DNA of 64,000 nt from a virus (Duplodnaviria > Caudoviricetes), in IMG/VR virus record IMGVR_UViG_2588253904_000003, positions 12,061 to 76,060 of that record, one strand, 5' to 3'. Made by a program: the position numbers and the translations under genes. Numbering within the stretch: the first letter of the stretch is position 1; each line of letters starts with the position of its first letter. The notes below the pieces were generated by a model, which saw only the letters and a list, made by a program, of their open reading frames with translations, was not told where the DNA came from and did no database searches. Below are positions 4,442-64,000 of this stretch, in pieces.

Positions 4442-4467
4442 CCCCTCAGAATGAAAAAGAGAAAACA

Positions 4468-4492: not shown

Positions 4493-4499
4493 TTTCCCT

Positions 4500-8304: not shown

Positions 8305-9519
8305 TTATACTGTTTTAGGGATATATGGGATGTACTCCCAATTTTCTATAAATAGCCGGTTGAAAAGGGCATCCATATTCCTGATAGTGTGGTATGCGTC
8401 CTTTTTCCCGGCAAATCCCCGCCATGATTGATATGCCGCCCTGATCTGCTCATAGCTCATGTGGCCCTCAGCATTCAGCTTGGCAAATTTCTTCAGCTTC
8501 CTTCTTTCCCTTGTTACAGAATCCCGGCATATTCTTTTCACTACCTTCCCGGTATCCGTGAGCAGGAAATGTGTTTTTAAGAATGTGAAGCCCCTGCTGA
8601 GCTTCACAATTTTGGTTTTCTTATCATTGAGCCGTATTCCCAATGATTCATATATTTTTCGCACCTCTTCCAGTATCTCCTTCAGGTATTCCTTATCAAT
8701 GTGAATGATATATGAATCATCCATATACCTGGCATATGGCCGGATCCCTTTTTCGTCCTTCACATAATGATCCACTTTATCAGGATAAGAAACGGCACAT
8801 ATTTGGCAGACTTCACTCCCTAATCCCAGGCCCCTGGCATACTCTTCACCGTACTCCATGGCCGCCTCTTTAAATTGTGCCATTTCCTTCATTTTCTCCT
8901 CAGCAAAGGCATCAATAAATTGCTCTGCAAGGTGAATGATCCTCTGATCCGTGAATTTGCTCCGGATCTGCTCCTTCATTTTGTCATGTGGGATACTTGC
9001 AAAATAATCTTTCAGATCTATTTGCAGGATATAGCCCTCATTTCCATATTTTGCATAATGCTCCTGCAAATGAAGCGTGATCCGGTCAATGGCATGGCTG
9101 ATTCCCATACCCTTCCTGGATGCTCCGTTGTCATATATCAGACTATTGGAGAGTACCGGCATGAGTGCATTTTGTGAGAGGCTCTTCTGAGGCACACGCT
9201 CAGAGAAATGCACACTCTGAATATGCCTCAGCTTTCCCCTCTCCACCAAATCAAAGGCAATGAATCCCTTTCGGACATCCTCACCATTGATCAGTGCATT
9301 ATGAGTTTTACAAAGGTTTCTGCTCAGCTCGGATCTGTACCGCTGCACACTGGCTTTTCACCCCACTCCCTTCCTGGCATCCTTGTATGCCTGGTAAAGT
9401 GAGTTATAATCTGCCACCCGTTCAAAATTATCATATTCGGATAGCCTCTCCCTCCGGTGTGCCTCCCTGGCCTCTCTCCTTCGCTGAGCTCTGCCCGCTC
9501 TTCTTTCTTCACTTGTCAT
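8305..9519 (-). pseudogene. DGR reverse transcriptase with an in-frame TGA at codon 54 (9358-9360)
   Basis: Motifs IDLKDYFASIPH, GLGLGSEVCQ, RYMDD. Frame reads from ATG 9519: MTSEERR...KGVG*KASVQRY. Confidence 0.88.
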
Positions 9520-9804: not shown

Positions 9805-9928
9805 GAATCAGACGGGCACCCGGAGAGCGTTGGAGCAACTGTTGTTGTTGGCATTGCCATTGTTGTTGACATTGCAGGCATTGGTAGAATTGCCCGCACA
9901 CACAGACAGCAGCCACCAGTTGGCCCGG
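9805..9928 (-). ncRNA. DGR template repeat (TR)
   Basis: 124 bp with 12 AAY codons; differs from both VRs only at TR adenines; lies between avd and RT. Confidence 0.95.
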
Positions 9929-10430: not shown

Positions 10431-11390
10431 TTATTCCGTGATTCGGAAGCAGACGGGCACCCGGAGAGCGTAGGAGCAACTGTAGCTGTCGGCAATGCCA
10501 TTGCCGCTGACATAGCAGGCATAGGTAGAATAGCCCGCACACACAGACAGCAGCCACCAGTAGGCCCGGCTTCCTCCGTCACCGGCCCCCTTGATCCGAT
10601 TCTTCCAACTGTTCGCAAAAATCGGATACTGCACCGCCTGGCCTTCTCCCCATGGCTTTGTTGCCCAAATCAGTGAGCCAAACACTTCATATTCACACGG
10701 GATCCACAGTTTCCCTAAATCCTGCCACCCCCATGAGGTTGAATCATTCAGCTTTCCGGATGCGGAATATCTCTGCTCTAAAAGGAACCGCTTGGAGCTG
10801 ATAACTGCCCGCACCTCTGCCGGGAGCTTTGCCTCTAATCCGGCCAGGAAGCTCTTCACGGTTGACTTGTTATAGGGATAAGGATCCGCTGAGGTTCCGT
10901 TGTTATCGTTTGAAGTGAACCATTGCACAGTATCCGGGTAACAATCTTTTGAGATCCAATCAATATGCCACCCTACCTCCTGATCACAGCACCGTGTATA
11001 TGTATTTATACCGGCAATCTGCATTTTGATCAGATAATTCCCCATGTAAATGGGTATATAGTCCTCTACATGCAGGCCATCAATGTTATGGGCTGCAAGC
11101 CTGGTTTTAATCCACCGCCACGGATCAGAAAATCCGGCAATCTCCTCAGCAAATTCCACTGTAAGATCCCGTCCCTCATAGGTGCGATCTGCTGCCTCTA
11201 TGGCATAATTGGTATGCTTATTCTCAAAATTGATCTGCTCTGCACCGTATTCATCCCCTTCCTGGGTGTACGGTGTTACGTCATTATAGCTCTTGGTGCC
11301 ATCCTCGTTCTGCACCTCTCCAAACTTGCGATCTGCCGCAAGCTCTTTGTTGATCACGTCATCCACATAATCTGTTTTTAATACTGACAT
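10431..11390 (-). CDS. DGR target 1: receptor-binding/tail protein with C-terminal CLec-type (DUF6273-like) domain
   Basis: Last gene of tail module; 'LWIPCEYEVFG...WWLLS' motif; contains VR1. Confidence 0.9.
   Translation of the reverse strand: MSVLKTDYVDDVINKELAADRKFGEVQNEDGTKSYNDVTPYTQEGDEYGAEQINFENKHTNYAIEAADRTYEGRDLTVEFAEEIAGFSDPWRWIKTRLAAHNIDGLHVEDYIPIYMGNYLIKMQIAGINTYTRCCDQEVGWHIDWISKDCYPDTVQWFTSNDNNGTSADPYPYNKSTVKSFLAGLEAKLPAEVRAVISSKRFLLEQRYSASGKLNDSTSWGWQDLGKLWIPCEYEVFGSLIWATKPWGEGQAVQYPIFANSWKNRIKGAGDGGSRAYWWLLSVCAGYSTYACYVSGNGIADSYSCSYALRVPVCFRITE
10446..10569 (-). repeat. DGR variable repeat VR1
   Basis: 13 mismatches to TR over 124 bp, all at TR adenines. Confidence 0.95.
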
Positions 11391-43957: not shown

Positions 43958-45538
43958 ATGAATTTTGGAATATATTGCAGAAAATCATATTTTGTTGATA
44001 CTTCAGAGAGCACACAGATGCAGCTCTCCATGTGTAAAAATCATATAGAGCAGCGCTTTCCTGAGGTTGATTCCCTCGCATTCTATGAAGATGATGGTTA
44101 TGTGCGCTCAGATATGGATCGGCCCGGCATGAACCAACTGAAGGAAGATATTGCAGCAGGCCTCATTGATTGTGTGGTTATTTACAAAATAGATCGGGTG
44201 TGCTCCGATATGATGGACTTTTGCACCTTCTACTCTTACCTGAAGGAGCATGAGATCAAATTTATCACTGTTCAGGATGGCATTGATACCACCACACCCC
44301 TGGGAGAGGCCATGATGTACTTGGCTGTAATCTTTTCCGGCCTGGAAGTTCGCACAGATTCCCTCAGGATCACCGATAATATGAACCACCTGGCGGCAAG
44401 TGGCTTTTGGTGTGGGGGCCGGGCTCCCGTTGGCTATGATATTGCCACTATTGACCTGGGGGCAAAATCCCACAAAACGCTCACATTCAATCAGGAAGAG
44501 ATCGACTATAAAAACAATCTTATTGACATATTCTTAGAGAACGGCTTCAGCCTTCAGAGCATGGAAACATATTGCAAAAACAACCGGATCACCTCTTTAA
44601 AAGGCAGCTTCCTCTCTACAACTCAGTTATACAACCTTTTCACCTCTCCTCATTGTGTTCAGGATACTCCGGCCATGTATGACTATTTTGAAGCTAAAGG
44701 CTGCATGATTGATGAAAATTCCCCCCGTGAGAAGTGGGATGGCCAACATGGGATCATTGTATATGGCCGCACCATGGAAAAGCGGGTGAACGGCAAAAAG
44801 CGCCACTCCCTGGCACCGCCTGAGAAGTGGCGGGTGAGTATCGGCTTTCATAAGCCATATATGACGGATCAGCGCTTCTTTTCCATTATGGCCCAATTCG
44901 GGCATAATACTTTTTCAAAGGTTGCAAAGTATGATCTGCCGCTCCTGAAGGGTGTGCTCCGGTGCAAGTGTGGCCGCACCATGAGCATGAGCCGCAAGCA
45001 AAAAGTGGATGGCTCTGTTTCCACCTGGTACTATTGCCCCAAACGCATGAGGGCCGGTGCTGAGGCTTGCGACATGCGGCAAATTAAGGCCGATCTACTG
45101 GATGGGAAGGTGTTGGACGTGTTCAAAGAAATACAGCACAACCCGGCCACCGTCAAAAAATACCTGAAGGACGGGAAAAAGCCTGCAAGGGATTCCTCTG
45201 CCTCTGTCCGGGCCCAAATGGAAACATGCCAGGAAAAGATCGGGAAGCTCACCGCCGCCCTGGCCGTGAATAATGAATCTGCTGCTGCAAAGTATATTAT
45301 AGGGGAGATTGAAAAACTTGATATAGAATATAATACCCTCAAAAGCAAGCTGCTGAATTTTGCCGCTGAGGAAAGACGGGCCGCCGCCCAAATGAAGAGC
45401 GCTATGGAGAAAAGAGAGGCCATCATTCGGCTTTTGGATAATTTTGATAGTTTCACAGCAAATGAGAGGAATGAGATCGCCAAAAATGTGCTGAAGGAAT
45501 GCACCTGGGATGGGGAAACGCTTTTTATTGTGCTTTAG
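43958..45538 (+). CDS. Large serine recombinase (prophage integrase)
   Basis: 'YCRKS', 'DRPGM', 'YKIDR', Zn-ribbon CKCG...C...C; adjacent to att core. Confidence 0.92.
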   Translation: MNFGIYCRKSYFVDTSESTQMQLSMCKNHIEQRFPEVDSLAFYEDDGYVRSDMDRPGMNQLKEDIAAGLIDCVVIYKIDRVCSDMMDFCTFYSYLKEHEIKFITVQDGIDTTTPLGEAMMYLAVIFSGLEVRTDSLRITDNMNHLAASGFWCGGRAPVGYDIATIDLGAKSHKTLTFNQEEIDYKNNLIDIFLENGFSLQSMETYCKNNRITSLKGSFLSTTQLYNLFTSPHCVQDTPAMYDYFEAKGCMIDENSPREKWDGQHGIIVYGRTMEKRVNGKKRHSLAPPEKWRVSIGFHKPYMTDQRFFSIMAQFGHNTFSKVAKYDLPLLKGVLRCKCGRTMSMSRKQKVDGSVSTWYYCPKRMRAGAEACDMRQIKADLLDGKVLDVFKEIQHNPATVKKYLKDGKKPARDSSASVRAQMETCQEKIGKLTAALAVNNESAAAKYIIGEIEKLDIEYNTLKSKLLNFAAEERRAAAQMKSAMEKREAIIRLLDNFDSFTANERNEIAKNVLKECTWDGETLFIVL

Positions 45539-45565: not shown

Positions 45566-46018
45566 AGCGATCTTCCGAAAGGAACCGTTATTTTTAATGA
45601 AGCACAGACAAAAGAAATCTTCCAAAATAAAGCGGATACTATGGGCAGCGTTTCTGCAAGCGGCTCTACAGGACAAAGCATTCCCGGAAAACCCACTCTT
45701 CCTCCGCCTCAGCGCCCTGCCTTTTTGGTGCAGCAGGAATTGCAGGAAGAATGCCTTGCAAAAACAGGCAACATTACGGATAAAATTTTATCTCCCCTAA
45801 ATATGCTTTCCCGCAATTGGAAAGACATGGCCGGCCTGACAGGAAACATAAATCATATCAATCACAATGGACAAAACCAGTCTGTCAATGTAGGCGGCAT
45901 CAATATCACCTGTCCCGGCGTTACCAGTCAGGAAGTGGCCAGACAGTTAGGGACAGAATTAAATCATATTTTCAGCGGATTCCATAACTATGCAGACCAG
46001 CAAAGCAGAGTCAGATAA
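45566..46018 (+). pseudogene. Tape-measure-like protein of outer element, 3' part
   Basis: SDLPKGTVIFNEAQTKEIFQNKADT in frame with ORF 45641-46018 and with the 5' part after excision. Confidence 0.85.
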
Positions 46019-50917: not shown

Positions 50918-51020
50918 TTATGAAAAAAACGAACTTGTTCGTTTTGCAAATCTTATGCCTGTACAATACGCAAAGCTTGTATGAAAGTTTGCACGGCAAT
51001 GGCAGAAATGGAGGAAAATT

Positions 51021-51350
51021 ATGACAGAATTTTCAAACGAATTTAGCAGCTTTCCTTCCGGGAAGATTACAAAACACAACTTTAAAAATATTGACGACAG
51101 CATTGCATCCGTAATTAATCAGATCAATTCCCTGCGCAGTCAGGGATTATACAATCAGGCTGCCCGCATTATTGAGAATAACTCTGATGTGTTATCTCAA
51201 TATATTGCTGACGCTTCCACTTTCAGAACCTGGGAGGAAGAAATATATAATACCCAGATCTATGCAAAGCAGCAACAGCAATCCATCTATTTTGATGACC
51301 AGGAGCCTGACTGCATTGATGGAGACGTCTGGCTTGGAGGTGATGCTTAG
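51021..51350 (+). CDS. Tail-associated protein
   Basis: Resembles the next gene; C-terminal 'EP...GDVW'. Confidence 0.65.
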   Translation: MTEFSNEFSSFPSGKITKHNFKNIDDSIASVINQINSLRSQGLYNQAARIIENNSDVLSQYIADASTFRTWEEEIYNTQIYAKQQQQSIYFDDQEPDCIDGDVWLGGDA

Positions 51351-51670
51351 TGTTATGTAACCCAGTATCTTACTACCCGGAAAAAATTGATGAAATGACT
51401 TTTTTTCAGGACAATAACATTGAAAATGCGGAAATCATCCACACCTATAACAATTTAATTTCACAAGGCAGCTACAACACCGCAAATGATTTTATCAGCA
51501 AACAGGATGGTATTTATGGCTTTTTTGCTGATTTTCTTAACCTCATTGAAAACCGTATCTACAATCTTCAGGCTTATCTTCTGCAAAAGCCTCCGAAAAA
51601 GCAGCCCTTTGCTACTTTTGATGAGGAAAAAGAACTTCCTGCTATAGATGTAGATACTATTTGGATTTAA
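51350..51670 (+). CDS. Tail-associated protein
   Basis: 'YPEKID...N.IEN...LQ'; C-terminal 'DTIWI'. Confidence 0.65.
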   Translation: MLCNPVSYYPEKIDEMTFFQDNNIENAEIIHTYNNLISQGSYNTANDFISKQDGIYGFFADFLNLIENRIYNLQAYLLQKPPKKQPFATFDEEKELPAIDVDTIWI

Positions 51671-51740
51671 ATATGATTGTATACAGTCCTTGGAGAGGGA
51701 CGATAAACACTACTACTTTATCATACAAGGAGAATAGAAA

Positions 51741-52370
51741 ATGGCAGTTAATGAAACAATTGTAACTGGTAGAAAATTTAGAAAATGCATTGATGCAGCA
51801 ACCAAAGCATGGCAGAGGATATCCTTCTGGACCAAGTCATCTGACGTAGAATTTGAGGACGGAAAAAATGCAGAGACAAAATTGGGCGCTATTGACGGAA
51901 TTACGGATAGTTTAGAGGATACTTCATCACGTATGGCCGCAAGTGCAAAGGCAGTTAGTACTTTAAATAATAATTTAGGCGGATGCCAGCTTGTGCAGGA
52001 AGGAAATGATTTCTATATCGTAGGTGCTGATTCAGTGCGAAAAAAATTGGGTAGTGCATTATATCATCTTGGTAAAACAAAGGCCAACATACAGACGGGG
52101 AAACCATCTGCTACATCAACGACTTTTAATGTGTCTGCAATAAGCGGATATCAAAATTTTACCATAGATAATTTTATTGCATCAGCAAGTGGATATGGAT
52201 TATGTGTAGCAGGCGCTGGATATTATGCATCTGTTTCAAAGTCCTACAATGCCAGCACTGGTGTACTTACCATAAATACACCTGCGACCTATTTTGCACA
52301 AATTAATGGTTATACAATGTTGTTAGGTATAGATGTCTATTTATGCACTGGTGATATTTTAAAATTATAA
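51741..52370 (+). CDS. Shufflon expression gene: 74-aa constant N-terminus + cassette A (tail-fibre/adhesin-like)
   Basis: aaggag RBS; 'AASAKAV..LNNNL' fibre motif; repeat A1 at codon 75. Confidence 0.85.
   Translation: MAVNETIVTGRKFRKCIDAATKAWQRISFWTKSSDVEFEDGKNAETKLGAIDGITDSLEDTSSRMAASAKAVSTLNNNLGGCQLVQEGNDFYIVGADSVRKKLGSALYHLGKTKANIQTGKPSATSTTFNVSAISGYQNFTIDNFIASASGYGLCVAGAGYYASVSKSYNASTGVLTINTPATYFAQINGYTMLLGIDVYLCTGDILKL
51964..51983 (+). repeat. Shufflon repeat A1 (core TAAATAATAATTTAG)
   Basis: 20-bp perfect inverted match to 52739-52758. Confidence 0.9.
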
Positions 52371-52378
52371 TTCCTGTT

Positions 52379-52759
52379 CTAAAACATACCATCAGGATAT
52401 ATAAGTGTACCGGCACTGCTGTTAATATATTCTGGCCCGGCTTTAGTAGTTATTGTTTGTCCGGATTTTAAATTAAACTGGTATAAAAACGACTGTTGAC
52501 CATTATAAGACTGATATCCAATACGTTTACTACTACCGGTAGTCGTAAAAATTATACCATCATAGGTTCCGGTAGATGCGTATGACCAAAAAAACAAATA
52601 GGCAACTCCGTCTCTTATGGCTTTATATGTACCTAAATTTACAGTTTTATAGGTATAGGTGCTACTAAAAGGGATCACTGTATCAGCACCCGGCTTTCTG
52701 TATCCTGGCTTTCCGTCTGCAGTTTCACCGAAGGAATATCCGCCTAAATTATTATTTAG
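52379..52759 (-). other. Silent shufflon cassette B (126 aa: LNNNLGGYSFGETADGKPGYRKPGADTVIPF...)
   Basis: Open frame begins at inverted repeat A2 (52739-52758), with no start or RBS of its own; tail-to-tail with cassette A. Confidence 0.85.
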
Positions 52760-52780
52760 CCATATATCACTTTTGAAACA

Positions 52781-52818
52781 AAAAGAAGAACAGAAATAAT
52801 CATTCTGTTCTTCTTTTT
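52781..52818. terminator. Bidirectional terminator after the recombinase gene
   Basis: aaaagaagaacagaa / ttctgttcttctttt 15-bp stem. Confidence 0.7.
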
Positions 52819-52835
52819 GTATATTATATACTCAT

Positions 52836-53855
52836 TTACCCAGCATATATATTATGTATATATGATATTTTATCATATGATTTTGCCAAATAATGTTTTT
52901 GAGTAGTTTCAAATGAAGAATGTCCTAAAATGTCTTGAATAATTGTCGGATCTACTCCTTTTTTATTTAAATCACTTGCTAACCATCGTCTAAAACAATG
53001 TACTGTAATATCTGGCAGCCCAATTCTGGTTCCTATCTTTTTTATTATTTGATTTATTGTGTCTTTACTTATTTTTCCATATGGTTTTTTTAATGAACAA
53101 AAAAGGTATGAACTAACATTCTGCCCTCTCTCGAACAAATATTCCTGCAAATGTTTTTTACATCTGATAGAAAATGGAACAATTCTGTCTTTTCCTCCCT
53201 TTCCATGTATAATCATTGTCTTTTTATCCCAATCCACTTCTGATAATAATATATTGCTCACTTCACTTACTCTTAGACCAGTTGAGATAAGCAAATCAAT
53301 TATTGCCAGCTCACGCTTATTGATACATGCATCTCTCATGGACTCTATTTCATAGTCTGTATAAAATCTCTTATATTTTAAGTCTTCTTTAATTCTAGGA
53401 ATTTTCTTCACTGGGTTTTTTGCTATATACTCTTCATCTTCCATAAACTGAAAAAACACATTAAGATTTCTCCGACAATTATTCGCTGTAGTTTTACTAA
53501 CAGATTTCTCATAATATAAAAGATATCTTCGTATGTCATCTGTCGTAATATTAGCCAAATCCTTATTATGATAAAAATCAACCAACGAAGAAATGCTATA
53601 AGTGTACTGTTCTAAAGAACTATCCTTTATTCCTCCCATTTTTTTGCATCCAATAAAATTTTTAATAATAAGAGAATTATTACTTGCATCAACAGAAAGC
53701 ATATTTTCAGAAGATATAAAATCAATGTTAGAAAAAACATTAGTAAGAATGTTAATAGATTGCGTCATTTGAATATTGTCAAAATGCATTTCTTCCCCAA
53801 TCATCCTTACAGCTACCTTAAATAAATAATCTTTGTCAATTTTTTTACCCAACAT
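52836..53855 (-). CDS. Tyrosine recombinase (shufflon invertase)
   Basis: TGLRVSE, GKGGKDR, HCFRR, LGH, Y; aaggagg RBS before ATG 53855; flanked by repeats A2 and A3. Confidence 0.9.
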   Translation of the reverse strand: MLGKKIDKDYLFKVAVRMIGEEMHFDNIQMTQSINILTNVFSNIDFISSENMLSVDASNNSLIIKNFIGCKKMGGIKDSSLEQYTYSISSLVDFYHNKDLANITTDDIRRYLLYYEKSVSKTTANNCRRNLNVFFQFMEDEEYIAKNPVKKIPRIKEDLKYKRFYTDYEIESMRDACINKRELAIIDLLISTGLRVSEVSNILLSEVDWDKKTMIIHGKGGKDRIVPFSIRCKKHLQEYLFERGQNVSSYLFCSLKKPYGKISKDTINQIIKKIGTRIGLPDITVHCFRRWLASDLNKKGVDPTIIQDILGHSSFETTQKHYLAKSYDKISYIHNIYAG

Positions 53856-53974
53856 ATATAATTGCCTCCTTACATAAGTGTGTGTAAAACTTATTATATA
53901 TCGAACATTTGTTCGATTCAAGTTTTTTTCAACATATTTATGACTTTTTATTAATTAATATCTTTGTTAACAAG

Positions 53975-54252
53975 TTAAATAATAATTTAGACGGCAAAGC
54001 AAATGGTGCATTTGTTGTTTTAACTGGTACTACACATACAGTTGCCGGACAACAAACAAGCCAAAATTATCCAAGCGGATTTAATCAAAATAATTGTGCA
54101 ATTGCAGGTGTTATGGTAAAACTTGGGCAAAATTGGTATTTTGGTAATTACAGTTCGGGTTATACTTACATAAATGCTCAAGTTATACTTAGTAGCCAGG
54201 TTGGCATTATACCAGCCTCTGGATGGACAAACTGTCAATATAAAATAGTTTT
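53975..54252 (+). other. Silent shufflon cassette C (LNNNLDGKANG...YKIV); last codons displaced to 62564-62579 by the IME
   Basis: Repeat A3 at 53976-53990 begins the open frame. Confidence 0.8.
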
Positions 54253-54953
54253 TTCTATAAAAAGGTTGATTATCTCAAAAAGCCTTGATTTACGGGCATA
54301 CAAGCAGGATTTCAAGCTAAAAATACTACCAATTTACTACTTTTGAGGGAAAGAGCCTTGATATGTTACCCGGAACCCTGCAAGCCCAAAGACCAGATAT
54401 CTGATAAAAAGCCACAATGAAAAGGCAAAAACAAAACGTAGCGTGTCAAGGGGCAAGCGGAGCGATACGCCGTAGGGCAACCCTTGACACAGCGGACGCA
54501 GGCCAAAGAAGAATGGAAAAAGAGGGAATGAAAAGACGCATTATCTTTCATTCCCTCTTGATTGTGTTTTTTGCTGTTTTCCGTTAATATAACCCCTTGC
54601 TAAATTTATACAGTGGCGGTATAATAAAAAAACGAGATAGATAATAAAAGGCAGGATGTAGGGAACGCCAATTCCCTACACCCCTATGCAGGAGAAGCGA
54701 CCTCCCACACAGCATATTATGCGCCAATTCAAGTATAGCGAATTTTCCACACTATTTCAAGTGGAAAACCAGCGTGTATTTGGATTTGTGGTGCTGTATT
54801 TTCAGCGGTGTAGGAAAGAAAAATCCTGCACCGCTTTCTTATTGTTTATCTCGGCAGATTGGCAGAGGGGCATAAACCTATGCCCTCTCTGCTGAACTGT
54901 TCGGGATTTTTCGCTTGTTGTTTTAAAATTTACAAAAAGAGAGGTAATCATGT

Positions 54954-55982
54954 ATGAAAAAAACTGTTTTAATGAAAGTGTTAGCCGGAGTTTTGTCTGT
55001 CGGCATAACAGCGGCTGGTGCGGTAGGTCTGAATATGTCTTCTACGGCTGACGTTTCCGCAGACAATGAGCCTGTTGCAGAGGCATCTGCTGACACAGAG
55101 ACCGAAGATTCTGTGCCGGTGGATGACGACAAACAAGGCGAAAGGGCAGAGAAAGAGAACACGCCTGATGTCCAGTCTGATGAAGATAAGCAGCTTCTTC
55201 TGGCATCCGCAGACACGGAAGACGGCAAGCAGACAGAGGTTCCTGTACAGTCCGTTAAGGTATCCGACAGCAAAAAAAACGCTACAGCTGCTAACTCCGT
55301 GGTACAGTCAACCACAAAGCCCGACAGCACTGCTGTGGCGGGCAATAACATAACGGCTTCTGAAAAGACACAGACTGCAAACACTGATACGACAGCAGTT
55401 GAGAAAGAAGCCGCTGGAAATACAGCCGCTGAGAAAGAAGGGGCTGAAAAGGCAGAGGCTGAAAGACTTGCAGCAGAGCAGGCAAAGAAAGAAGCTGCAG
55501 AGAAAGAGGCAGCTGAAAAGGCAGCAGCTGAGAAAGCAGCCGCTGAAAAGGCAGAGGCTGAGAGACTTGCAGCTGAAAAAGCAGCAGCTGAGAAAGCAGC
55601 CGCTGAAAAGGCAGCCGCTGAAAAGGCAGCAGCAGAGAAAGCAGCAGCAGAGAAAGCAGCAGCAGAGCAGGCAGCAAGAGAAGAAGCAGCAAGACTTGAG
55701 GCTGAAAGACTTGCAGCTGAACAGGCAGAGGCTGAAAGACTTGCAGCTGAAAAGGCTGAGGCTGAAAGACTTGAGGCTGAGCAGGCAGCACAAAAGGATA
55801 AAGACAGTATCGTGGTTCAGGGTGGAGAAGATACGCTTGTACTGGGTGGCGAGCAGCAGAAAGTGGCTCACTATCACTGCAACTGCGGTCATTCCACAAC
55901 CGATTATGATGCATTGAAACAGCATATGAAACAGCATGCTCTTAACGGTGACAGAAACAGCTACTGCACAACCTACGAATAA
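54954..55982 (+). CDS. Secreted protein with (AEKAA)n helix and C-terminal Cys/His motif
   Basis: Signal peptide; 15-bp tandem repeats ~55420-55790; 'HCNCGH...HMKQH'. Confidence 0.8.
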   Translation: MKKTVLMKVLAGVLSVGITAAGAVGLNMSSTADVSADNEPVAEASADTETEDSVPVDDDKQGERAEKENTPDVQSDEDKQLLLASADTEDGKQTEVPVQSVKVSDSKKNATAANSVVQSTTKPDSTAVAGNNITASEKTQTANTDTTAVEKEAAGNTAAEKEGAEKAEAERLAAEQAKKEAAEKEAAEKAAAEKAAAEKAEAERLAAEKAAAEKAAAEKAAAEKAAAEKAAAEKAAAEQAAREEAARLEAERLAAEQAEAERLAAEKAEAERLEAEQAAQKDKDSIVVQGGEDTLVLGGEQQKVAHYHCNCGHSTTDYDALKQHMKQHALNGDRNSYCTTYE

Positions 55983-56148
55983 ATACCATAAGAGTGACAG
56001 CAGAAACATCCTGTTCCTGCTGTTGCTTTTTTGGGGAATTTTCTTTTTCCGGCCCACATACGCGGGCCAGTCTTCCCGGGGACAATCCCCCGTCCCTTCT
56101 AAAACATATGTATACAGAAAAATAAATTTTCTACAAAGGAGACAAGAT

Positions 56149-56790
56149 ATGAACAAAAAAGAAATTTTAGACTGTTTATCTGAAAAGAAAAGACTAACGG
56201 CGCCTGTTGCCACAGCAGAAAATAACGTGAGAGCCGCCGAGAGCAATTATGAAAAAGCACGTAAAAAATGGAAATGGGGGATAGTTATATCAATAGTCTT
56301 TTTGATTCTTTATATTCTGTTTTTTCTGTCAGGTGACAGGGGGCTATTTTCCTTTGACGAACACCATGTTTTGCAGGCCGGTGGTCTTGGCGGGATTATT
56401 CTTTTTGGGGGAATTTTATTTCTTTTACTATATGTAAAAAGCCTGCTTTATACAAATCCGGCAGAAAAGAAGCTGGTAGAAGCACAGAATATTCTCAGAC
56501 AGGAAAAAAGTAAGCCGGATTATATAAACGGTTCAAAAAATTTCCCTGCGAAATTTTACAACTATTCTGACCTTTTTCGCCTGTGGAATATTATTAATGA
56601 AGGAAGAGCCGAAAGTTTAAAAGAAGCGTATAACCTGTTAGAAACGCAACAGTTCCAGCAAGACCAGATGGCAATTCAGGAAGATATCAGACGCTTGCAG
56701 CAGGAAACAGCAACTACATCAAAGATAAATGCCGCCGCTTCTGTAGTAACGGCATATAACACCGCCAAAACAGCAAGAAGATTAAGATGA
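56149..56790 (+). CDS. Two-TM membrane protein
   Basis: aaggag RBS; two hydrophobic helices; 'GRAESLKEA.NL'. Confidence 0.75.
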   Translation: MNKKEILDCLSEKKRLTAPVATAENNVRAAESNYEKARKKWKWGIVISIVFLILYILFFLSGDRGLFSFDEHHVLQAGGLGGIILFGGILFLLLYVKSLLYTNPAEKKLVEAQNILRQEKSKPDYINGSKNFPAKFYNYSDLFRLWNIINEGRAESLKEAYNLLETQQFQQDQMAIQEDIRRLQQETATTSKINAAASVVTAYNTAKTARRLR

Positions 56791-57257
56791 TAAGCTGAAA
56801 GCGGTAAAAGGTTTATTCAATTTTTTATTTCTTCTTACTATAAAAGAGAGGGGTTTTTCACAATCCACTCTCTTTTACATTTCCTTTATCAATCCACTAT
56901 ATTTCAACCTTAATCATTTTTATATTATATGAATGACTCAGACATACGTCTGAGTCACCACGGGGATATCCCCGTTCCCCTTTTTTCTTTTGATAAAAAA
57001 TTACTTCTCAATTTTCCTCTGTCTACCTTCCCATCTTCTTAACCTCTATCTAATGTAATGTTAACATTTTAGGGAAAGTTGTCAAGCGATTTGTCCAAAA
57101 TTTAATAAAAATTTAATAAATTCCATCTTGAAATGATGGTTTCGGTAGTAATGAACACTACCGCCCCGCAGTTGCAAATGCGGAAAACGTCACTGACAAA
57201 TCAGGGTACCCGCCTATAAGAGAAAGTATTATGATGCGCATCATATAGAGTATCTAT

Positions 57258-57656
57258 ATGATTAAAGAACGATTAAGACAACAGATGTTTTTACACCGTG
57301 AAAAACTGGGCCTAAAACAGCGTGAAGTTGCCGAGTTACTTGGCAAGTCTGAAAAGACTTATCAACGGCTGGAATCCACTGGCCGTGGCCTGTCTGATAT
57401 TTTTGACATCCTCGAAATCTTTCAGGTATTGCATTTTTCCACTACAGAAATTGTTAACGTTCTGGGGTTCCCGCCGCTCACATTAAGTGAAGTGACGGAA
57501 CTTTATCAGGACGAAGAAATCCTGAAAAGCATACGAGAAAACGCTATATGCTCCACTATCCGTCAGACGTGTGGAAAAATGGAAACAAGTACAATAGAAC
57601 GTCTGATTTTTACCCTGATGAAAGAACAATGCCAAAGGAAAGGGAACTCTGCCTGA
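57258..57656 (+). CDS. XRE-family HTH regulator
   Basis: 'REKLGLKQREVAELLGKSEKTYQRLE'. Confidence 0.85.
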   Translation: MIKERLRQQMFLHREKLGLKQREVAELLGKSEKTYQRLESTGRGLSDIFDILEIFQVLHFSTTEIVNVLGFPPLTLSEVTELYQDEEILKSIRENAICSTIRQTCGKMETSTIERLIFTLMKEQCQRKGNSA

Positions 57657-57783
57657 GTTTCCCTTCCTCCATGCGGGGTTCAGGCGATAAATGCCTTATA
57701 CTGCGAAGTGGGAAAAAAAGCGGGGTATGCTACCATATCAATGTAACCTAAAACAAATTCAATTTAGAAGGGAGACAAAAGAA

Positions 57784-58137
57784 ATGGCATTAAAGAAATT
57801 AAACCAGTTTTTAAGATTTGACTACGAGGAATTTTCCAAAGACAAGGTGCTTCAGGTCACTGGCATAAGTGAATGGACGGATTTCAACACCAAAGCCCAC
57901 ATGGGAATCAAACTTGAAACGACTATTGTCAAGGACAACACCCTGTATAAGCAGAAAGACGGGGAAAACGTCACGAACCGTTATGAGAAGCTGACCATAA
58001 AGGTGCGTAAGGACGTAAACATCCCGATGAATGCCTTTGTGGTGCCTGTCAATGCGGCCGCTACCGTGTACGGGGATTACCGCAACCAGCTGTCAATAAC
58101 TGCTGACGATGTCCGGGTACTTACACCGAACAAGTAA
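57784..58137 (+). CDS. IME mobilisation accessory protein (OB-fold-like)
   Basis: RBS; directly before the FtsK gene. Confidence 0.6.
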   Translation: MALKKLNQFLRFDYEEFSKDKVLQVTGISEWTDFNTKAHMGIKLETTIVKDNTLYKQKDGENVTNRYEKLTIKVRKDVNIPMNAFVVPVNAAATVYGDYRNQLSITADDVRVLTPNK

Positions 58138-58156
58138 GTGAAGGGAGTGAACCATT

Positions 58157-59515
58157 ATGAACCATTATAAGAAGGGAGTCAGGTATTTTTCCCCCGCCGC
58201 TTGGATTCTTGCGGCGGGGGGATTTCTCCTCTTTTACTCAGCCTTTTTAGGACTGATGAAATATCTGAACCATTCGGACGTGTTCAGCCTGAACCTCTAT
58301 CTCGTGAAAGCCTCTGCCATATCCATGGCAATGGCGGCTGCCCTGCTCACGCTGTCGCTTGCCCTGCATATTAAGGGCGGTGCCGAAAAGCAGATAGAAC
58401 ACCGTGTAAAAAAGAGGCTGTATGACCCAGTGTATGGGAACCCGCTCAGCTTCCGGGAAAGGGAACTGCTCCCGCCCGTCAGGTGCCGGAGGCTCAACAG
58501 CACAACATTTGAAATCTCTGTCAGGGCTGTTTCATGCACAGTAGAAAATTTACTGAACATTGCGCCGGTCATATCGTCTTCCCTGAACGGGAAATACGGG
58601 AAGTATGCGGTTGTCAGCTGTGAAGCGGACGAAGCCTTTAACCGGGTGGCTTACCGGATTGAAGACGTGCTGGCCGACAGGAGCCTGACGGTGAATTCCG
58701 TGGAAGGGCTGAAATCGCCGGACAAAACGAAAATCCCGATTGACATGGAAACCTTTATCGACCTGAAAACCTCCGGCAGTATCCTGGTCGCCGGGAAGAC
58801 AAGGAGCGGGAAGACCACGGGCACCATTACAATCCTGCTTCCGCTCTTACTGTGCGGACGTGATAAGTATGATTCCAATATCTTCATCATTGACCCGAAA
58901 TTGGCGGAACTGTCAATGCTCCCCCATGTTGTGGCCGTAAATCCCAACGGGGATGTCGAACCAGTCATAGCGTTGATGGAAGAATTTGAATCTACGAGAA
59001 AGACCCGGCAGGCAGTATTGAACCGACGTTCACAGGAGACCGGTAATGCCGTGAAATGGTGGGATGCCGGGATGCACCCCAGCATCCTGTTCATTGATGA
59101 ATATGTGGCATTAAAAAGCCTTTTCCCAAAGTCTGCCAGAGGGAACGGGGGATTCAATATATCTGATTTTGAAAGTTTACTGAAACGCATTATAACCATG
59201 GGGGCGTCTGCCGGGTGCTTTGTCATCATCTCCATTGCGGAAGCGTCAGTGGAGGAAGGCGGCCTGCCGTCCATGTTAAAGTCAGCAATGACAACCAAAA
59301 TCCTGTTCAAGCCTACGGTGGAGGAAGCCCGGCTTATCTGGAACAGTGAACGGCTAAGGACCTTTAATGCGGGGCGTGCATATAGAGCCGGAGATTGCCT
59401 GTTTTCCTCCACGGACGGCATACACGACACGCCAGGGTATCTGCATTTCCCGAACATGGAGTTTGAAGTTTATGCGGAACTGGGAAGGCTTCTGGAGGAA
59501 TACTACGCTTCGTAA
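58157..59515 (+). CDS. FtsK/SpoIIIE (TcpA-like) coupling protein
   Basis: Two N-terminal TMs, GKTRSGKT, IIDPK, FIDEY. Confidence 0.85.
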   Translation: MNHYKKGVRYFSPAAWILAAGGFLLFYSAFLGLMKYLNHSDVFSLNLYLVKASAISMAMAAALLTLSLALHIKGGAEKQIEHRVKKRLYDPVYGNPLSFRERELLPPVRCRRLNSTTFEISVRAVSCTVENLLNIAPVISSSLNGKYGKYAVVSCEADEAFNRVAYRIEDVLADRSLTVNSVEGLKSPDKTKIPIDMETFIDLKTSGSILVAGKTRSGKTTGTITILLPLLLCGRDKYDSNIFIIDPKLAELSMLPHVVAVNPNGDVEPVIALMEEFESTRKTRQAVLNRRSQETGNAVKWWDAGMHPSILFIDEYVALKSLFPKSARGNGGFNISDFESLLKRIITMGASAGCFVIISIAEASVEEGGLPSMLKSAMTTKILFKPTVEEARLIWNSERLRTFNAGRAYRAGDCLFSSTDGIHDTPGYLHFPNMEFEVYAELGRLLEEYYAS

Positions 59516-59526
59516 GAATGAAGATT

Positions 59527-59621
59527 CACCACGATTCCGGCCTGCCGGAATCGTGGTGTCAGTGTCAGTTTCTAAAAAAACTGTTGTTTTCTGGCGGTGG
59601 GCTTGTTATACCGCCAGAAAA
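59527..59621. promoter_or_regulatory. Putative dso/oriT hairpins of the IME
   Basis: 15-bp perfect stem 59527-59558 and 12-bp stem 59587-59621, with GTGTCAG repeats, directly upstream of rep. Confidence 0.6.
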
Positions 59622-59687
59622 CCAAAGTGTCAGAGTGTCAGGAACGTTCGGAAACACAGGAAAATCAGGGGAAGGAGTGACACCGGA

Positions 59688-60917
59688 ATGTCAGACAAAG
59701 AAAACTGCCGTGTCAGGTCTAAAAACATGATGTACACACAGCAGATAAGGCACCTGCCAGTCGGAAGCACAGACCAGCTAGTCAGCCGGGTGAAAAAGAT
59801 GGCACCGAAGAGATATGCACTGATTGTGCATGACAGTGATGTCAATGAACAGGGGGAACCCGCAGAAGACCATGTACACGTGATGCTGTCCTTTGAGAAT
59901 GCCCGCTCCATTAACAGCATTGCAAAGGAACTGGGAGACGAGCCGCAGTCCATTGAAATGTGGAAAGGAAAAGCGGAAAACGGCTATTCTTACCTTATCC
60001 ACGCCACAAAAGATTCTGGAAACAAATACCAGTACCCCCCGTCAAGAGTCATAGCGAATTTCAATTATCAGGAAGAGATAAAGAGAATCACGGAAGAGGT
60101 TGAGCGAAGCAGGCAGACGGCAAACAGTAAAATCCTGCTGGATTCCCTCTATAAAGGGGAAATCTCGAAAGAGGAACTGGAAAAACGGTTAAGCGGCAGC
60201 CAGTACGGGAGAATGAGACGCCAGATTGAGGATGTGTGGTGCAAGCACCTGCAATTTCAGGCGGCTAAATGGCGGGAAGAAATGAAAAAGAGTGGGAAAC
60301 GGATAAAAGTCATATGGATTAGCGGAGAAGCGGGAACAGGAAAAACAAGTTTAGCCAAAGAATACGCCGAAAAGTCAGGCCGCCCCTACTTCATCACGGG
60401 AAGCAGCCGGGATATTTTCCAGAATTACTCCGGCGAGCATACCATAATCCTTGACGAGTTTCGGGCTGACATGATGAAATACCCGGATTTGCTGCGCATA
60501 CTTGACCCTTTCGGTAGTCAGGTCATGGCACCGTCCAGATACAATGACAAGCCTCTGGCCTGTGACCTGATTCTCATTACATCACCATATAATCCGGTAG
60601 AATTTTACCGGCAGCTGTTTAGCCGGGCTCCCGCAAATTTTGTTGACAGTCTGGAACAGTTATTGAGAAGAATTTCACTGACCATTGAAATGGACGCATC
60701 CCATATCAGGGCGGTTGAATATGACAAAGAGGCAGAGGCTTACCGGGCTGTGGATAACGCCGAAAAGGAAAACAGATATTCCAGACATTACCGGGAACAG
60801 GACAGCACCGCCAGCAACCCCAAAGAACTGTTTGAATCCATGTTCCGTGAGGCTCCATGCGTGGAACCCGGCAGTCTTGCTTCTGTAGGGAAGGAGGGAG
60901 ATAATGAACAGGACTGA
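59688..60917 (+). CDS. HUH Rep/relaxase (Rep_2-like) fused to SF3 helicase
   Basis: [23 protein letters not shown]. Confidence 0.85.
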
Positions 60918-61107
60918 TGTTCCCATCTGGGAAAAGTACACGCTTACCATTGAGGAAGCGTCCAAGTATTTCCGTATCGGGGAAAACAAGCTGCGCAAAC
61001 TTGCAGGGGAAAACCCCACGGCAGACTGGATATTCTTAAACGGCAACCGCATCCAGATTAAGCGGAAACAGTTTGAAAAAATCATTGACACACTGGACGC
61101 AATTTAG
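60904..61107 (+). CDS. xis: Tn916-type excisionase
   Basis: '[26 protein letters not shown]'. Confidence 0.92.
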
Positions 61108-61194
61108 CCAAAAACAGTGAAAAAGAGCCCTGAATGTGCTATAATAGATATAAGCATATCAGGGCTCTTTCCGACACGGAAAGGAGCAGAAACA

Positions 61195-62391
61195 ATGTCG
61201 GAAAAAAGACGTGATAATCAAAACCGCATTTTGCGTTCAGGAGAGAGCCAGAGAAAAGACGGGAGATATGCTTACAAATATACCGATATTTTGGGCAAAG
61301 TGAGATTTGTCTATGCATGGAAGCTGGTACCCACGGACAAAACCCCGGCCGGGAAGCGAGACGGCATATCCCTCCGGGAAAAGGAAAAAGAGATACGGAA
61401 AGACTTTGAAGACGGGATAGACACAGTTGGAAAGAAAATGACCGTCTGCGACCTTTACGCAAAGCAGATACGGCACCACGGGAACGTAAGGCATAACACC
61501 ACAAAGGGGCGTGAACGGCTGATGAAGCTGCTGGAAGCGGATAAGCTCGGTTCCTGCCCTATTGACAGCGTGAAGCCGTCTGATGCGAAAGAATGGGCGC
61601 TGCGCATGAAAGAAAAGGGGATGTCCTACAAGACCATAAGCAATGACAAGCGTTCCTTAAAAGCTGCGTTCTATACGGCGATACAGGACGACTGCATCAG
61701 GAAGAACCCCTTTGACTTCCAGCTAAACACCGTGATTAAGGATGACACGGAGCCGAAAGTACCCCTCACAGCAAAGCAGGAAGAAAGCCTTTTATCCTTT
61801 ATGCAAAGTGACAGCGTCTACCGGAAATACCGTGACGAGGTTATCATACTGCTGGGAACGGGGCTTCGGGTTTCCGAACTCTGCGGGCTGACCGAAACCG
61901 ACCTTGACTTTGAAGAACGGGTAATCCATGTAGACCATCAGCTTTTACGGAGTGCAGAGACCGGGTACTACATAGAGAAGCCAAAAACACAGAGCGGCAT
62001 CAGGCAGATTCCAATGAGTAAAAAAGTATATGAAGCGTTGGGGCGTGTGTTGAAGAACCGCAGGGGAGCGAAAACGGCCACGGTTGACGGTTACAGCAAT
62101 TTCCTTTTCCTTAACCGGAACGGTTTCCCGAAAACGGCGGCCAGCTATGACAGTATGTTCCGGGGGCTTGCGGAGAAGTACAACAAAAGCCATGAGGAAG
62201 CGTTACCCAGAGTAATGACCCCGCACACCTTACGCCATACGTTCTGTACCAACTTGGCCAATGCAGGCATGAACCCCAAAGCGTTACAGTATATCATGGG
62301 GCATTCCAACATCACTATGACACTGAACTATTACGCACACGCAACATTCGCTTCCGCAAGGGCTGAAATGGAAAGGCTGATTGCAGTATAG
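61195..62391 (+). CDS. int: Tn916-type tyrosine integrase
   Basis: 'MSEKRRD...GESQRKDGRY', TGLRVSE, HTLRHTF, MGH. Confidence 0.93.
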   Translation: MSEKRRDNQNRILRSGESQRKDGRYAYKYTDILGKVRFVYAWKLVPTDKTPAGKRDGISLREKEKEIRKDFEDGIDTVGKKMTVCDLYAKQIRHHGNVRHNTTKGRERLMKLLEADKLGSCPIDSVKPSDAKEWALRMKEKGMSYKTISNDKRSLKAAFYTAIQDDCIRKNPFDFQLNTVIKDDTEPKVPLTAKQEESLLSFMQSDSVYRKYRDEVIILLGTGLRVSELCGLTETDLDFEERVIHVDHQLLRSAETGYYIEKPKTQSGIRQIPMSKKVYEALGRVLKNRRGAKTATVDGYSNFLFLNRNGFPKTAASYDSMFRGLAEKYNKSHEEALPRVMTPHTLRHTFCTNLANAGMNPKALQYIMGHSNITMTLNYYAHATFASARAEMERLIAV

Positions 62392-62758
62392 CCGCAGAAG
62401 GCTTTACTACTTTTTTACTACTTTTGAGAGGGAAAACCTGAAAAGTTATGAGGGTATATGTGAACTTCTCCCCATATCTAAGATGCCGGAAAAGCCCAAA
62501 AATACGGGCTATACCGATATATAAGAACTTCTAAAGAGATAATCTAAAATCACCTATAATTTTATATAAATATCTTTGATATTTTACTGTGTTATGTTAA
62601 AGTAAGCTCCGTATAAATCAGCAAAATAGGGAAAATTGTAGCTGTATATCCTGCTGTTCTATATGGAATTTGTTTTGATCCAACCTGTATACAGGTAACT
62701 TTTATTGAAGAAATAAAGGGTTGAATTTACTTTTGCATTAGGCCAATAATATTTTAAC

Positions 62759-63061
62759 TTATAGCTGCTTGACATTCGTAACTTCAATATATACAGGAAC
62801 CGCAGACCAATTTCCACCAACACCATTTAACTTGCGCACAGTAGATTTACTTTTTAGTCTAAAATTCTCAAAAATAAATTTAACTTCCATCAAAGAATCT
62901 GCATACTTTGAATTGCCTGTATTTAATTGTGTTACTTGAATTACAGTAAATTCAAAATTCCCACTACTAAAAGGGAATACTGTATCAGCACCTGGCTTTC
63001 TGTATCCTGGCTTCCCGTCAGCAGTTTCACCGAAGGAATAGCCTCCTAAATTATTATTTAA
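62759..63061 (-). other. Silent shufflon cassette D (100 aa: LNNNLGGYSFGETADGKPGYRKPGADTVFPF...; not in ORF track)
   Basis: Inverted repeat A4 at 63046-63060; 62964-63060 matches 52662-52758 at 90/97 nt. Confidence 0.8.
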
Positions 63062-63214
63062 TTTACTAAAATCATAATTATGCCTCTTGGCAGGCTTCCG
63101 TAGGAAAAATTTAGGAACTCTAATACTATAAGAGCTCCTTTTGAAATGCTTTTAATTAAAAATTAGTCAAATATCCACACATGCATTATCATTTATTTCC
63201 GGAAAATGCTTGAC

Positions 63215-64000
63215 TCAATCCTTTAACTTAAATATTCTTTCCGTGTTCTTTCTGGCATTCTCCACTAATACCTCTTCTGCAACCTTCATATATTTTGCTA
63301 AATCTTTAACCACATATTTAATATTCTGGGGTACATTTGTCCTGTCAAGACCAGGAACGTTTTTAGGCGTCAGATAAGGTGCATCAGTCTCCACCAGAAT
63401 CCGATCCAGAGGAATCAATCGTACAGCTTCCCTCAATTCTTTCCCACGTCGTTCATCACAAATCCATCCGGTAATTCCGATTGAGAAGCCCATTGACAAA
63501 TATCTGTCCAATGTTGCCTTATCTCCAGTAAAGCAATGTACAACAGATTTTTTACAAATATCAGGATGCTTTTTGAACCTCTTTATAAAATCATCTGCTG
63601 CACTCCTCTCATGCAAAAATAATGGCTTATCTAATTTCTCTGCAAGAACAATATGTTTTTCCAGACATCTTACCTGATTTTCTTTTGTAGAAAACATTCT
63701 ATCATAGTCTAAACCACATTCCCCAACTGCAACTATCTTATTATTTTCAGATAAAATTTTCTCAATTTTTTGAAAGTCTTCCTGCTTTGCCTGGTCCGCA
63801 TTATGAGGATGTATTCCTGCGGTTCCAAAAACTTCATGTCTTTTTACAAATTCATCAATTTTACTATTTTCTTTTGAATCTGTTCCAGTTAAAATACAAC
63901 ATACTCCACTATCTGCTGCATCCTTAATTATTTTTTCAGGTTCCGGAAATTGCCTGCAAAATAAATTTAATCCTATATCATAATATTTTGTATCATGCAT
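63215..64000 (-). CDS. tatD: TatD family deoxyribonuclease
   Basis: GIHPH, VGECGLDY, LHER, HCFTG, ETDAPY. Confidence 0.92.
   Translation of the reverse strand: MHDTKYYDIGLNLFCRQFPEPEKIIKDAADSGVCCILTGTDSKENSKIDEFVKRHEVFGTAGIHPHNADQAKQEDFQKIEKILSENNKIVAVGECGLDYDRMFSTKENQVRCLEKHIVLAEKLDKPLFLHERSAADDFIKRFKKHPDICKKSVVHCFTGDKATLDRYLSMGFSIGITGWICDERRGKELREAVRLIPLDRILVETDAPYLTPKNVPGLDRTNVPQNIKYVVKDLAKYMKVAEEVLVENARKNTERIFKLKD

Follow-up and report, generated by a model that had tools for sequence, protein, structure and literature searches.

A probable tail-fibre shufflon with an embedded Xer-like recombinase in a phage-tail gene cluster of mouse-gut Lachnospiraceae

Introduction

Shufflons in which a tyrosine recombinase exchanges the tips of a surface protein are already known, and the principle is established. 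In the R64/IncI1 shufflon, Rci acts on sfx sites and exchanges the tips of pilV, with rci itself located outside the invertible DNA, and in phase-variable hsdS loci of Type I restriction systems a tyrosine recombinase lies between inverted half-genes. The closest precedent for the locus studied here is the Rin shufflon of Bifidobacterium prophages, described as a constant gene for a receptor-binding protein with variable cassettes, sites of 11 bp and a Xer-like tyrosine invertase (Mavrich et al. 2018, PMC6109161). Rin is presented there as the first phage-encoded invertase of the tyrosine family, and a shufflon of the Rin type was later noted in Eggerthella lenta prophages (PMC8778435). Here we analyze a 64,000-nucleotide stretch of DNA (IMG/VR record IMGVR_UViG_2588253904_000003, positions 12,061 to 76,060; hereafter the window), in which positions 51741-63061 hold four copies of a 15-bp core, four tip cassettes and a recombinase gene. 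We consider it very likely that this locus is an active multiple-inversion switch, or shufflon, acting on the last gene of a phage-tail cluster; the reading draws on the sites and their open frames, an intact recombinase gene, inverted forms found in nature and the association of the enzyme with its sites.

Tail-fibre C-termini are also exchanged by site-specific inversion in Gin (Mu), Cin (P1) and Min (p15B), the last with several crossover sites (PMC6109161), and the tailocins carotovoricin Er and the pantailocins are described as carrying invertase switches on head-less particles. A tail-fibre shufflon has been described in BV01-like phages of Phocaeicola vulgatus, with a 10-bp motif, three cassettes in 1.7 kb, a flanking recombinase and all configurations present in reads (PMC13596623, a preprint). 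In a systematic survey, tail-fibre genes were enriched among programmed inversions, and the phase-variable hsdS family is mentioned there (PMC9881135). Our literature search returned no description of such a switch in Lachnospiraceae or other Bacillota within the collection searched.

The locus resembles Rin, as that system is described, in its tyrosine-family recombinase with Xer-like domains, in a constant N-terminal gene accompanied by several promoterless C-terminal cassettes, in a short asymmetric repeat that heads each cassette (here absent from the rest of the genome), in the occurrence of several arrangements (in prophage and virion sequences for Rin, with breakpoints inside the sites here) and in its gut host. 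It differs in that the host belongs to the Bacillota (Lachnospiraceae) rather than the Actinomycetota, in its 15-bp site, which is unrelated to the 11-bp TTCCCTAACCC (rix), in its recombinase, which lies between two cassette pairs and is invertible whereas that of Rin is described as flanking the array on one side, and in a carrier without detected head genes. The two recombinases are compared by description only, and the 23 phage records that matched ours, all at less than 36% identity, include no Bifidobacterium phage. With R64 the locus shares a tyrosine recombinase, multiple short sites in both orientations, a presumed restriction to inversion and C-terminal adhesin tips on a constant N-terminus, and it differs in site sequence, in its target (in a tail cluster rather than a conjugative pilus adhesin) and in having the recombinase inside the invertible DNA. 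The swapping of tail-fibre C-termini by site-specific inversion is common to Gin, Cin, Min and the tailocin switches, which, as described, use small serine invertases instead of a tyrosine recombinase and have proteobacterial hosts. The original prediction had named R64 Rci and Gin/Cin as the known parallels; they illustrate the principle, and the nearest design is that of Rin. The BV01-like shufflon likewise concerns a gut phage tail fibre with several cassettes and a recombinase, and differs, in its published description, by having a host among the Bacteroidota, a motif of 10 bp and its recombinase at the flank of the array. The hsdS loci share a recombinase next to or between inverted partial genes and short in-frame repeats, with a DNA-specificity subunit as their target rather than a virion or tail protein. 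The locus is set apart by its host phylum, its site sequence, the embedded and invertible recombinase, a carrier that is possibly head-less, and a family with up to nine sites.

Results and discussion

Core sites, tip cassettes and recombinase

The 15-bp core, TAAATAATAATTTAG, occurs as exact copies at the four positions given in Table 1 and nowhere else in the 4.57-Mb genome, in alternating orientation (+, −, +, −), and every copy encodes LNNNL in frame and opens a reading frame. With a tolerance of up to two mismatches, chance alone would give 0.22 matches, and five were never reached in 100 shuffles; the fifth match on that list is a near-palindromic self-overlap of the B copy. A 16-mer made of the core and its leading T has three matches across the genome, all inside the locus, the B copy having C at that position, and a degenerate 15-mer spanning the cores of all relatives matches the window at the four sites only.

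The cassettes form two tail-to-tail pairs, A/B and C/D, with the tyrosine recombinase gene between the pairs. Counted from the core, the currently expressed tip A comprises 135 aa of a 209-aa protein (51741-52370), and the four frames, 97-135 aa long, are all open. Directly past the core, B and D have 97 nt in common at 93% identity. Cassette D is missing from the list of open reading frames (ORFs) of at least 50 aa. C has a mechanical TTG start at 53909, 22 codons before its core, and neither B nor D has such a start; ORFs of the C-slot type were called by gene callers in other assemblies (P0003, P0123). The original prediction is borne out in its four alternating cores, in the single phase of the frames, in the tail-to-tail pairs on either side of a tyrosine recombinase gene and in the invisibility of D to ORF calling. 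Its statement that the three silent cassettes lack a credible start holds strictly for B and D and is a matter of judgement for C. Promoter-like sites were no more frequent than chance would have it (17 found, 15.7 expected).

Conservation within the fibre family changes at the core. In an alignment of the 84 of 121 proteins that start with M and bear the core motif, residues 1-79 are highly conserved and similarity drops sharply straight after LNNNL. An AlphaFold model of the fibre protein (mean pLDDT 63, below 50 over most of residues 59-81) has a helix at 63-80 that ends at LNNNL and is followed by a beta-rich domain, which would fit a receptor-binding protein built of stem, neck and head in which crossover takes place where neck meets head. 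The 209-aa protein is thus probably a receptor-binding protein, and its alternative tips probably differ in specificity. In BFVD, a fold search gave three weak matches with poor TM-scores, all to proteins of gut phages and one bearing the name tail fibre; they were not used as evidence.

The gene between the pairs (mechanical ORF 52836-53921) most likely starts at ATG 53855, which stands behind AAGGAGG and from which residue on the relatives align. Its product carries PF00589 (1.1e-33) and an N-terminal SAM-like domain (Phage_int_SAM_4), is XerA/XerD-like in the NCBIfam comparison with scores under the curated cut-offs, and aligns to archaeal XerA structures (PDB 4a8e, 5.6e-28). No Rci family is among the 14 NCBIfam families listed for it, and the ~65 N-terminal residues are without a domain match. 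The motifs GLRVSE, GKGGKDR, HCFRR, LGHSS and KHY are all present, and we take these to be the carriers of the catalytic Arg, Lys, His-x-x-Arg, His and Tyr residues; judged by its sequence, the gene is intact. The protein has no serine-recombinase domain (PF00239), carrying PF00589 instead, and the neighbourhood has no serine recombinase other than the 526-aa integrase that belongs to an inserted prophage (43958-45538). The embedded recombinase is probably the invertase of the locus.

Table 1. Features of the locus, in window coordinates
Feature	Coordinates	Strand	Remarks
Constant N-terminal part of the expressed receptor-binding/tail-fibre gene	51741..51962	+	74 aa; own start codon and ribosome-binding site
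Core site a	51964..51978	+	codons 75-79 (LNNNL) of the expressed gene; crossover site; opposite-strand joints 51964/52759 and 51984/52737 of sample X12 here
Tip cassette A, currently expressed	51979..52370	+	130 aa after the core, plus stop (52368-52370)
Tip cassette B, silent	52379..52743	-	126 aa from the core (52759 to 52382); stop 52379-52381
Core site b	52744..52758	-	exact core match; 21-nt perfect inverted repeat with site a
Inverted repeat, terminator-like	52778..52820	.	consensus match only
Xer-like tyrosine recombinase, proposed invertase	52836..53855	-	339 aa from ATG 53855; inside the b-c invertible segment
Core site c	53976..53990	+	exact core match; joints 53974/63061 and 53975/63062 of sample X12 here
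Tip cassette C, 5' part, silent	53991..54248	+	frame runs from 53975; rest of C displaced to 62560-62579
Tn916-family integrative mobilizable element	54249..62559	+	8311 bp, in the last codons of cassette C
Tip cassette C, native 3' end	62560..62579	+	5 codons and stop (62577-62579); split off by the inserted element
Tip cassette D, silent	62762..63045	-	100 aa from the core (63061 to 62762); stop 62759-62761
Core site d	63046..63060	-	exact core match; last feature of the element; host TatD gene next, at 63215

Inverted arrangements in other samples

Evidence for inversion comes from contigs of four of 20 public runs containing the stretch, which are mouse-gut samples from four different studies, were compared over 51000-63400 and, being contigs, yield no frequencies. 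In sample X12, a contig of 4129 nt (record 2, with 0 differing letters) reads rc(51964-52706) + 52759-53974 + rc(62560-63061) + rc(53975-54248), where rc is the reverse complement, and has both the A/B and the C/D segment inverted relative to the window. Another contig of that sample (record 1, 15.3 kb) links 51984 to 52737 on opposite strands, joining the N-terminus to tip B. The identity common to both sides of the inversion joints amounts to 16-21 nt. In samples X13 and X15 a contig ends at every core, with 30-nt overlaps, probably owing to mixed orientations in the 31-mer assembly graph. The fourth sample, X5, is colinear with the window minus the 8311-bp element. Its contigs break within cassette D (window 62803-62811), with loose ends unlike the window on both sides, which may be a variant or a rearrangement of that sample.

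Fusion proteins in databases extend the range of arrangements. The 209-aa protein has 402 homologs at E <= 0.001, and among the best 120 of the 402 are the N-terminus with tip B (P0025, 99% over 126 aa), the N-terminus with tip C and its native end (P0034, 95% over 97 aa) and the C-slot leader with tip A (P0003, 97% over 135 aa). A search with tip D alone added the C-slot leader with tip D (P0123 and P0124, 99-100%). Taken with the contig forms, these proteins call for recombination of a with b, c with d, b with c and a with d, and site-specific inversion at the cores occurs in nature. Comparison with other sequences therefore yields the alternative cassette orders that the original prediction implied, and its phase-variable receptor-binding tips are supported by the inverted contigs, by the fusion proteins and by an intact recombinase linked to the sites in relatives. 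The search with tip D also returned a protein (P0125) that has this tip (100%) on an unrelated N-terminal region ending ...VVVGEVINNL; tip D serves another fibre family too, with a junction at a similar motif.

The inverted forms could also be rare rearrangements, produced by homologous recombination or a different enzyme and fixed in separate strains, rather than products of ongoing phase variation by the embedded recombinase. Each contig presents a single arrangement, X5 and X12 are each cleanly single, and the data are contigs rather than reads. The identity at the joints is nevertheless too short for efficient RecA recombination, and two single samples, X13 and X15, each have contig breaks at all four cores. 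Related loci, described next, bear further on this alternative.

Related loci and co-varying sites

Close relatives of the recombinase were rare in the genomes sampled. With one genome per genus sampled across the family, none of 200 genomes had a close recombinase (best 38% identity), and within the same genus one of 67 other genomes (G224) has one, at 78% identity. A pattern scan for the fibre family found 32 loci in species-representative genomes, nearly all labelled Lachnospiraceae, Acetatifactor, Eisenbergiella or Clostridium metagenome-assembled genomes, and one more in viral contigs. The 33 loci include two, L062 (the G224 contig) and L063, whose recombinases are 77-78% identical to that of the window. 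Both have four sites in + − + − order and full-length cassettes of 109-141 aa, and in both the recombinase gene separates the two pairs; with the window counted in, all three genome loci whose recombinase reaches 77% identity share four alternating sites and this position of the gene. In L062 and L063 the recombinase is codirectional with the expressed gene, the opposite of its orientation in the window, exactly as expected from inversion between b and c. In each of L053 and L061 there is one silent inverted cassette, and the remaining loci hold single genes or full paralogues in tandem. L058 and L064 have near-matches to the core that are open for only 8 and 13 codons, and these were rejected as cassettes. 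Another close relative, L054, has runs of N in an apparently mis-assembled shufflon region and was used for the empty site of the prophage only. In G224, the closest relative among the genomes, an extra 234-aa ORF with no Pfam match lies between a cassette and the recombinase in the invertible segment (L048, 11175-11879).

A metagenome scan for the recombinase yielded 30 loci, in 17 of which it is 70-100% identical to ours; L094/L095 and L097/L098 are near-duplicates. At least two sites are present in 13 of these 17, a single site in two short contigs and no site in the other two. The outer bases of the site are kept (TTAA...TTA), and the central bases are specific to each locus and uniform within it. 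The sites encode LNNNL in the window, L087, L088 and L091, LNNQL in L063, LNNKL in L100, L102, L108 and L109, LSNDL in L089 (four alternating sites, recombinase between the pairs) and LNSNL in L092-L099. The loci of this last group have seven to nine sites by a 12-mer count in L092-L095, L097 and L098, and two and three in L096 and L099, respectively, which are short or edge contigs. These sister shufflons have recombinases at 70-74% identity and cassettes of 90-133 aa; some of their sites stand head-to-head, 45 nt apart, and the arrangement differs between L094 and L097. In L092, homologs of the window's tail module (48-52%) precede the switch.

That site centres vary among loci yet match within each is our main argument that the embedded enzyme is the invertase, because strand exchange by a tyrosine recombinase would need identical overlap regions. 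The same data speak against fixed, rare rearrangements: sites and recombinase occur together in 13 of the 17 metagenome loci, with central bases homogenized per locus, and L087 and L088 have other arrangements (the N-terminus with B expressed and another distal tip pair) beside a 100% identical recombinase. In favour of that alternative, enzyme and sites are linked by association rather than by biochemistry. On balance we find it quite unlikely.

Known phages contributed little. A search of phage records with 7951 bases of the locus gave a single match of 63 bases, and one with the 209-aa protein gave no match. Of the 23 phage records matched by the recombinase, those of Terrisporobacter phage TPELB_ph1 and Clostridium phage phiCp-D were considered as shufflons and rejected, having no repeated inverted cores. 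Both phages encode a tyrosine recombinase of 30-34% identity between tail-fibre and lysis genes (L049, PP197244.1 17645-18640; L050, MW478291.1 21639-22616), and have another integrase or ParM besides it. The recombinases of four IMG/VR contigs, 48-51% identical to ours, adjoin an endolysin gene, and the metagenome twins of these contigs (L105, L106) have no sites by the degenerate core pattern, the sole pattern tried.

Proposed mechanism of the switch

We propose that the recombinase pairs two sites of opposite orientation and inverts the intervening DNA. Only site a would stand behind a promoter, a ribosome-binding site and the 74 constant codons, with B, C and D promoterless. Recombination of a with b would exchange tip A for B, c x d would exchange which of C and D faces outward, a x d would move the distal pair into the expressed slot, and b x c would turn only the recombinase gene and the leader regions. 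Serial inversions could then place any of the four beta-rich tips on the constant stem, at the end of the neck helix, and a tip swap would alter what the tail binds. A restriction of the enzyme to inversion is probable.

The recombinase could instead be primarily the integrase of the tail element, with tip inversion as a side activity or carried out in trans. No other integrase was found in the element, whose length is ~23 kb once the two inserts are subtracted; the end of the G224 shufflon adjoins a sequence that looks like the 3' end of a tRNA gene; and the relatives at 48-51% identity lie beside lysis genes, with no repeats detected. Against this, only SAM-like core-binding and catalytic domains are detected, as in Xer, an arm-binding domain being possible in the ~65 N-terminal residues. 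Moreover, the gene lies between inverted sites and hence is itself flipped, and the sites stand in frame within coding cassettes and number up to nine in relatives, unlike att sites. This reading strikes us as highly improbable, and an inversion switch driven by the embedded enzyme remains the preferred explanation.

Several observations weigh against this explanation. The recombinase is linked to the sites by association only, and the conserved site of just 15 bp is short for a full Xer-type site. The two-cassette relatives L053 and L061 have no recombinase in the available DNA. The breaks at the cores in X13 and X15 are interpreted as graph branching and were not observed as reads, and Logan contigs give no switching rates. 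A fusion of the N-terminus with tip D was not found among the best 120 of the 402 homologs or by the search with D alone. The fibre protein has no match in Pfam, PHROG or NCBIfam, and its model is of low confidence, with nothing at E <= 0.001 in a Foldseek search of the PDB. Lastly, the element is interrupted twice in this strain, where the switch may have no phenotype.

The mobile element in cassette C

The first interruption lies within the switch. In four of the four runs examined, 54248 is joined to 62560 ('skips 8311', 0 mismatches), a precise empty site; the inserted element is therefore 54249-62559 and is absent here in other samples of the same organism. It encodes a helix-turn-helix protein, an FtsK/SpoIIIE-like protein (PF01580), a Rep_OBD protein (PF01719), a Tn916-Xis (PF09035) and, at 61117-62391, a Tn916-type integrase with a PF02920 N-terminal DNA-binding domain and PF00589; no type IV secretion (conjugation) genes were found among the ORFs tested. 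The spacing of 8.3 kb between C and D exists because this element sits inside C. In the present assembly 31 element-encoded codons replace the last five codons of C, giving a frame of 123 aa against 97 aa without the insertion, with the native end ...KIVLYKYL when read across the 54248->62560 joint. The original prediction had missed that a Tn916-type element, which brings in a second tyrosine recombinase, fills the interval between C and D and damages cassette C. One ORF of the insert (54954-55982, 342 aa) contains ~16 tandem 15-bp (5-residue) repeats, and its sole Pfam match is a weak, low-complexity one to HC2.

The tail element and its prophage

The expressed fibre gene is the last gene of a plus-strand module in mouse-gut Lachnospiraceae, which encodes, in order, proteins of 405 and 309 aa, a tail protein of 608 aa with DUF5048 (phrog_1887) and a 212-aa protein whose tail-collar-fibre matches are weak, followed by two small ORFs and the fibre gene; Phage_fiber_rpt is found in a neighbour gene of a relative. 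Further genes of the element lie upstream, one of them sigma-like and the others encoding an 812-aa protein, a 'virion structural protein' of 267 aa, a holin and an endolysin of the GH25 type. A model of the 267-aa protein (pLDDT 68) has 13 Foldseek matches at E <= 0.001 and is siphovirus tail tube-like; the ten best are tail-tube, major-tail or phage-neck entries, bar one with an uninformative title, and the whole length of the model can be aligned to the major tail protein of YSD1 (Z 7.0, 205 residues). Sequence searches of the PDB with the 267-aa and the 304-aa proteins found nothing, and the ESM Atlas gave leads only (viral/LamG-like clusters for the 405-aa protein, zinc-ribbon-like ones for a 351-aa protein), which were not taken further. 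The 812-aa protein (L051 11250-13688; G000:C1:482503-484941) has a two-barrel RdRP polymerase domain of eukaryotic type (PF05183, 6.5e-16), adjoins the sigma-like gene at the head of the tail element and has homologs at 26-28% in three of five related genomes. It presumably resembles the YonO-type phage RNA polymerases (SPbeta YonO).

The second interruption is larger. The relative L054 joins window position 4441 straight to 45559, and the interval is therefore an inserted 41-kb siphovirus-like prophage (window 4442-45560), with genes for terminase, portal, major head, tape measure, holin and, at its right end, the large serine integrase, and with a CCCTCAG core at both junctions. It lies in the 3' part of a 1433-aa tape-measure-like ORF (292-4593) whose gene is uninterrupted in L054; the window ORFs at the junctions are 292-4593 and 45641-46018. 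The uninterrupted gene order is also seen in an IMG/VR contig (a very large ORF, a small ORF, then ORFs of 405, 308 and 564 aa), and in a distant relative, G272, the large ORF and a 434-aa ORF match tape-measure families. The prophage itself carries a diversity-generating retroelement (DGR), with a reverse transcriptase at 8305-9348 (minus strand) and a 124-nt template/variable pair of repeats at 9805-9928 and 10446-10569; each of their 13 mismatches coincides with an adenine in the template copy, and the variable copy lies at the 3' end of ORF 10431-11390. The window thus contains two diversifiers of receptor-binding proteins side by side, a shufflon and a DGR.

The particle is possibly crippled in this strain, because the mobile element replaced the last five codons of C and the prophage splits the tape-measure-like gene. 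In the strongest form of this argument, the switch would work on DNA and be functionally dead here, with no particle and no tip phenotype. The L054 joint, a 1433-aa ORF deprived by the prophage of its native ~150 C-terminal residues, the X5 and X12 contigs, which likewise run into the prophage, and the mobile element within C all favour it. On the other hand, every ORF of the tail element that was checked is open, three tips (A, B and D) are undamaged, and the element in C is absent from four of four other samples. Prophages with serine integrases can also excise precisely and restore their target gene (SPbeta, skin), and the one found here could be of this gene-interrupting type, restoring the tape-measure-like gene on excision. 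A dead switch in this strain is a possibility that we rather doubt.

The original prediction placed the switch on a phage-tail-derived structure in a gut Firmicute, which agrees with the tail tube, tape-measure-like, baseplate, tail and lysis genes found in Lachnospiraceae; it had overlooked the 41-kb prophage that splits the tape-measure-like gene and a carrier without detectable head genes. No pilus genes were seen. Families for capsid, portal, terminase, replication or integration were likewise not found among the 18 element ORFs scanned, a set that excluded one ORF of ~200-280 aa and the small ORFs and in which several ORFs are without annotation. A head-less, non-contractile, tailocin-like particle is a serious possibility for the carrier. 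More speculatively, and with doubt prevailing, the element may represent a non-phage family of head-less, non-contractile tailocins of Lachnospiraceae that has its own YonO-like single-subunit RNA polymerase and whose target range is phase-varied by a Xer-like invertase embedded in the invertible DNA (four tips here, up to nine sites in sister loci), gated in this strain by the DGR-bearing prophage in the tape-measure gene until that prophage excises.

Conclusions

The Lachnospiraceae are among the dominant commensals of the gut, yet hardly any work has been done on their phages and tailocins. The locus offers a concrete receptor-switching device in this family, with evidence of natural activity, a defined 15-bp site, a small dedicated recombinase and an unusual carrier, and it illustrates the damage that mobile elements may do to such switches. 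The well-defined family to which it belongs, with two to nine sites whose centres co-vary with the locus, is a natural series in which the restriction of a Xer-like enzyme to inversion and the co-evolution of site specificity can be followed. If the carrier is indeed a tailocin, a single strain could vary which of its competitors die.

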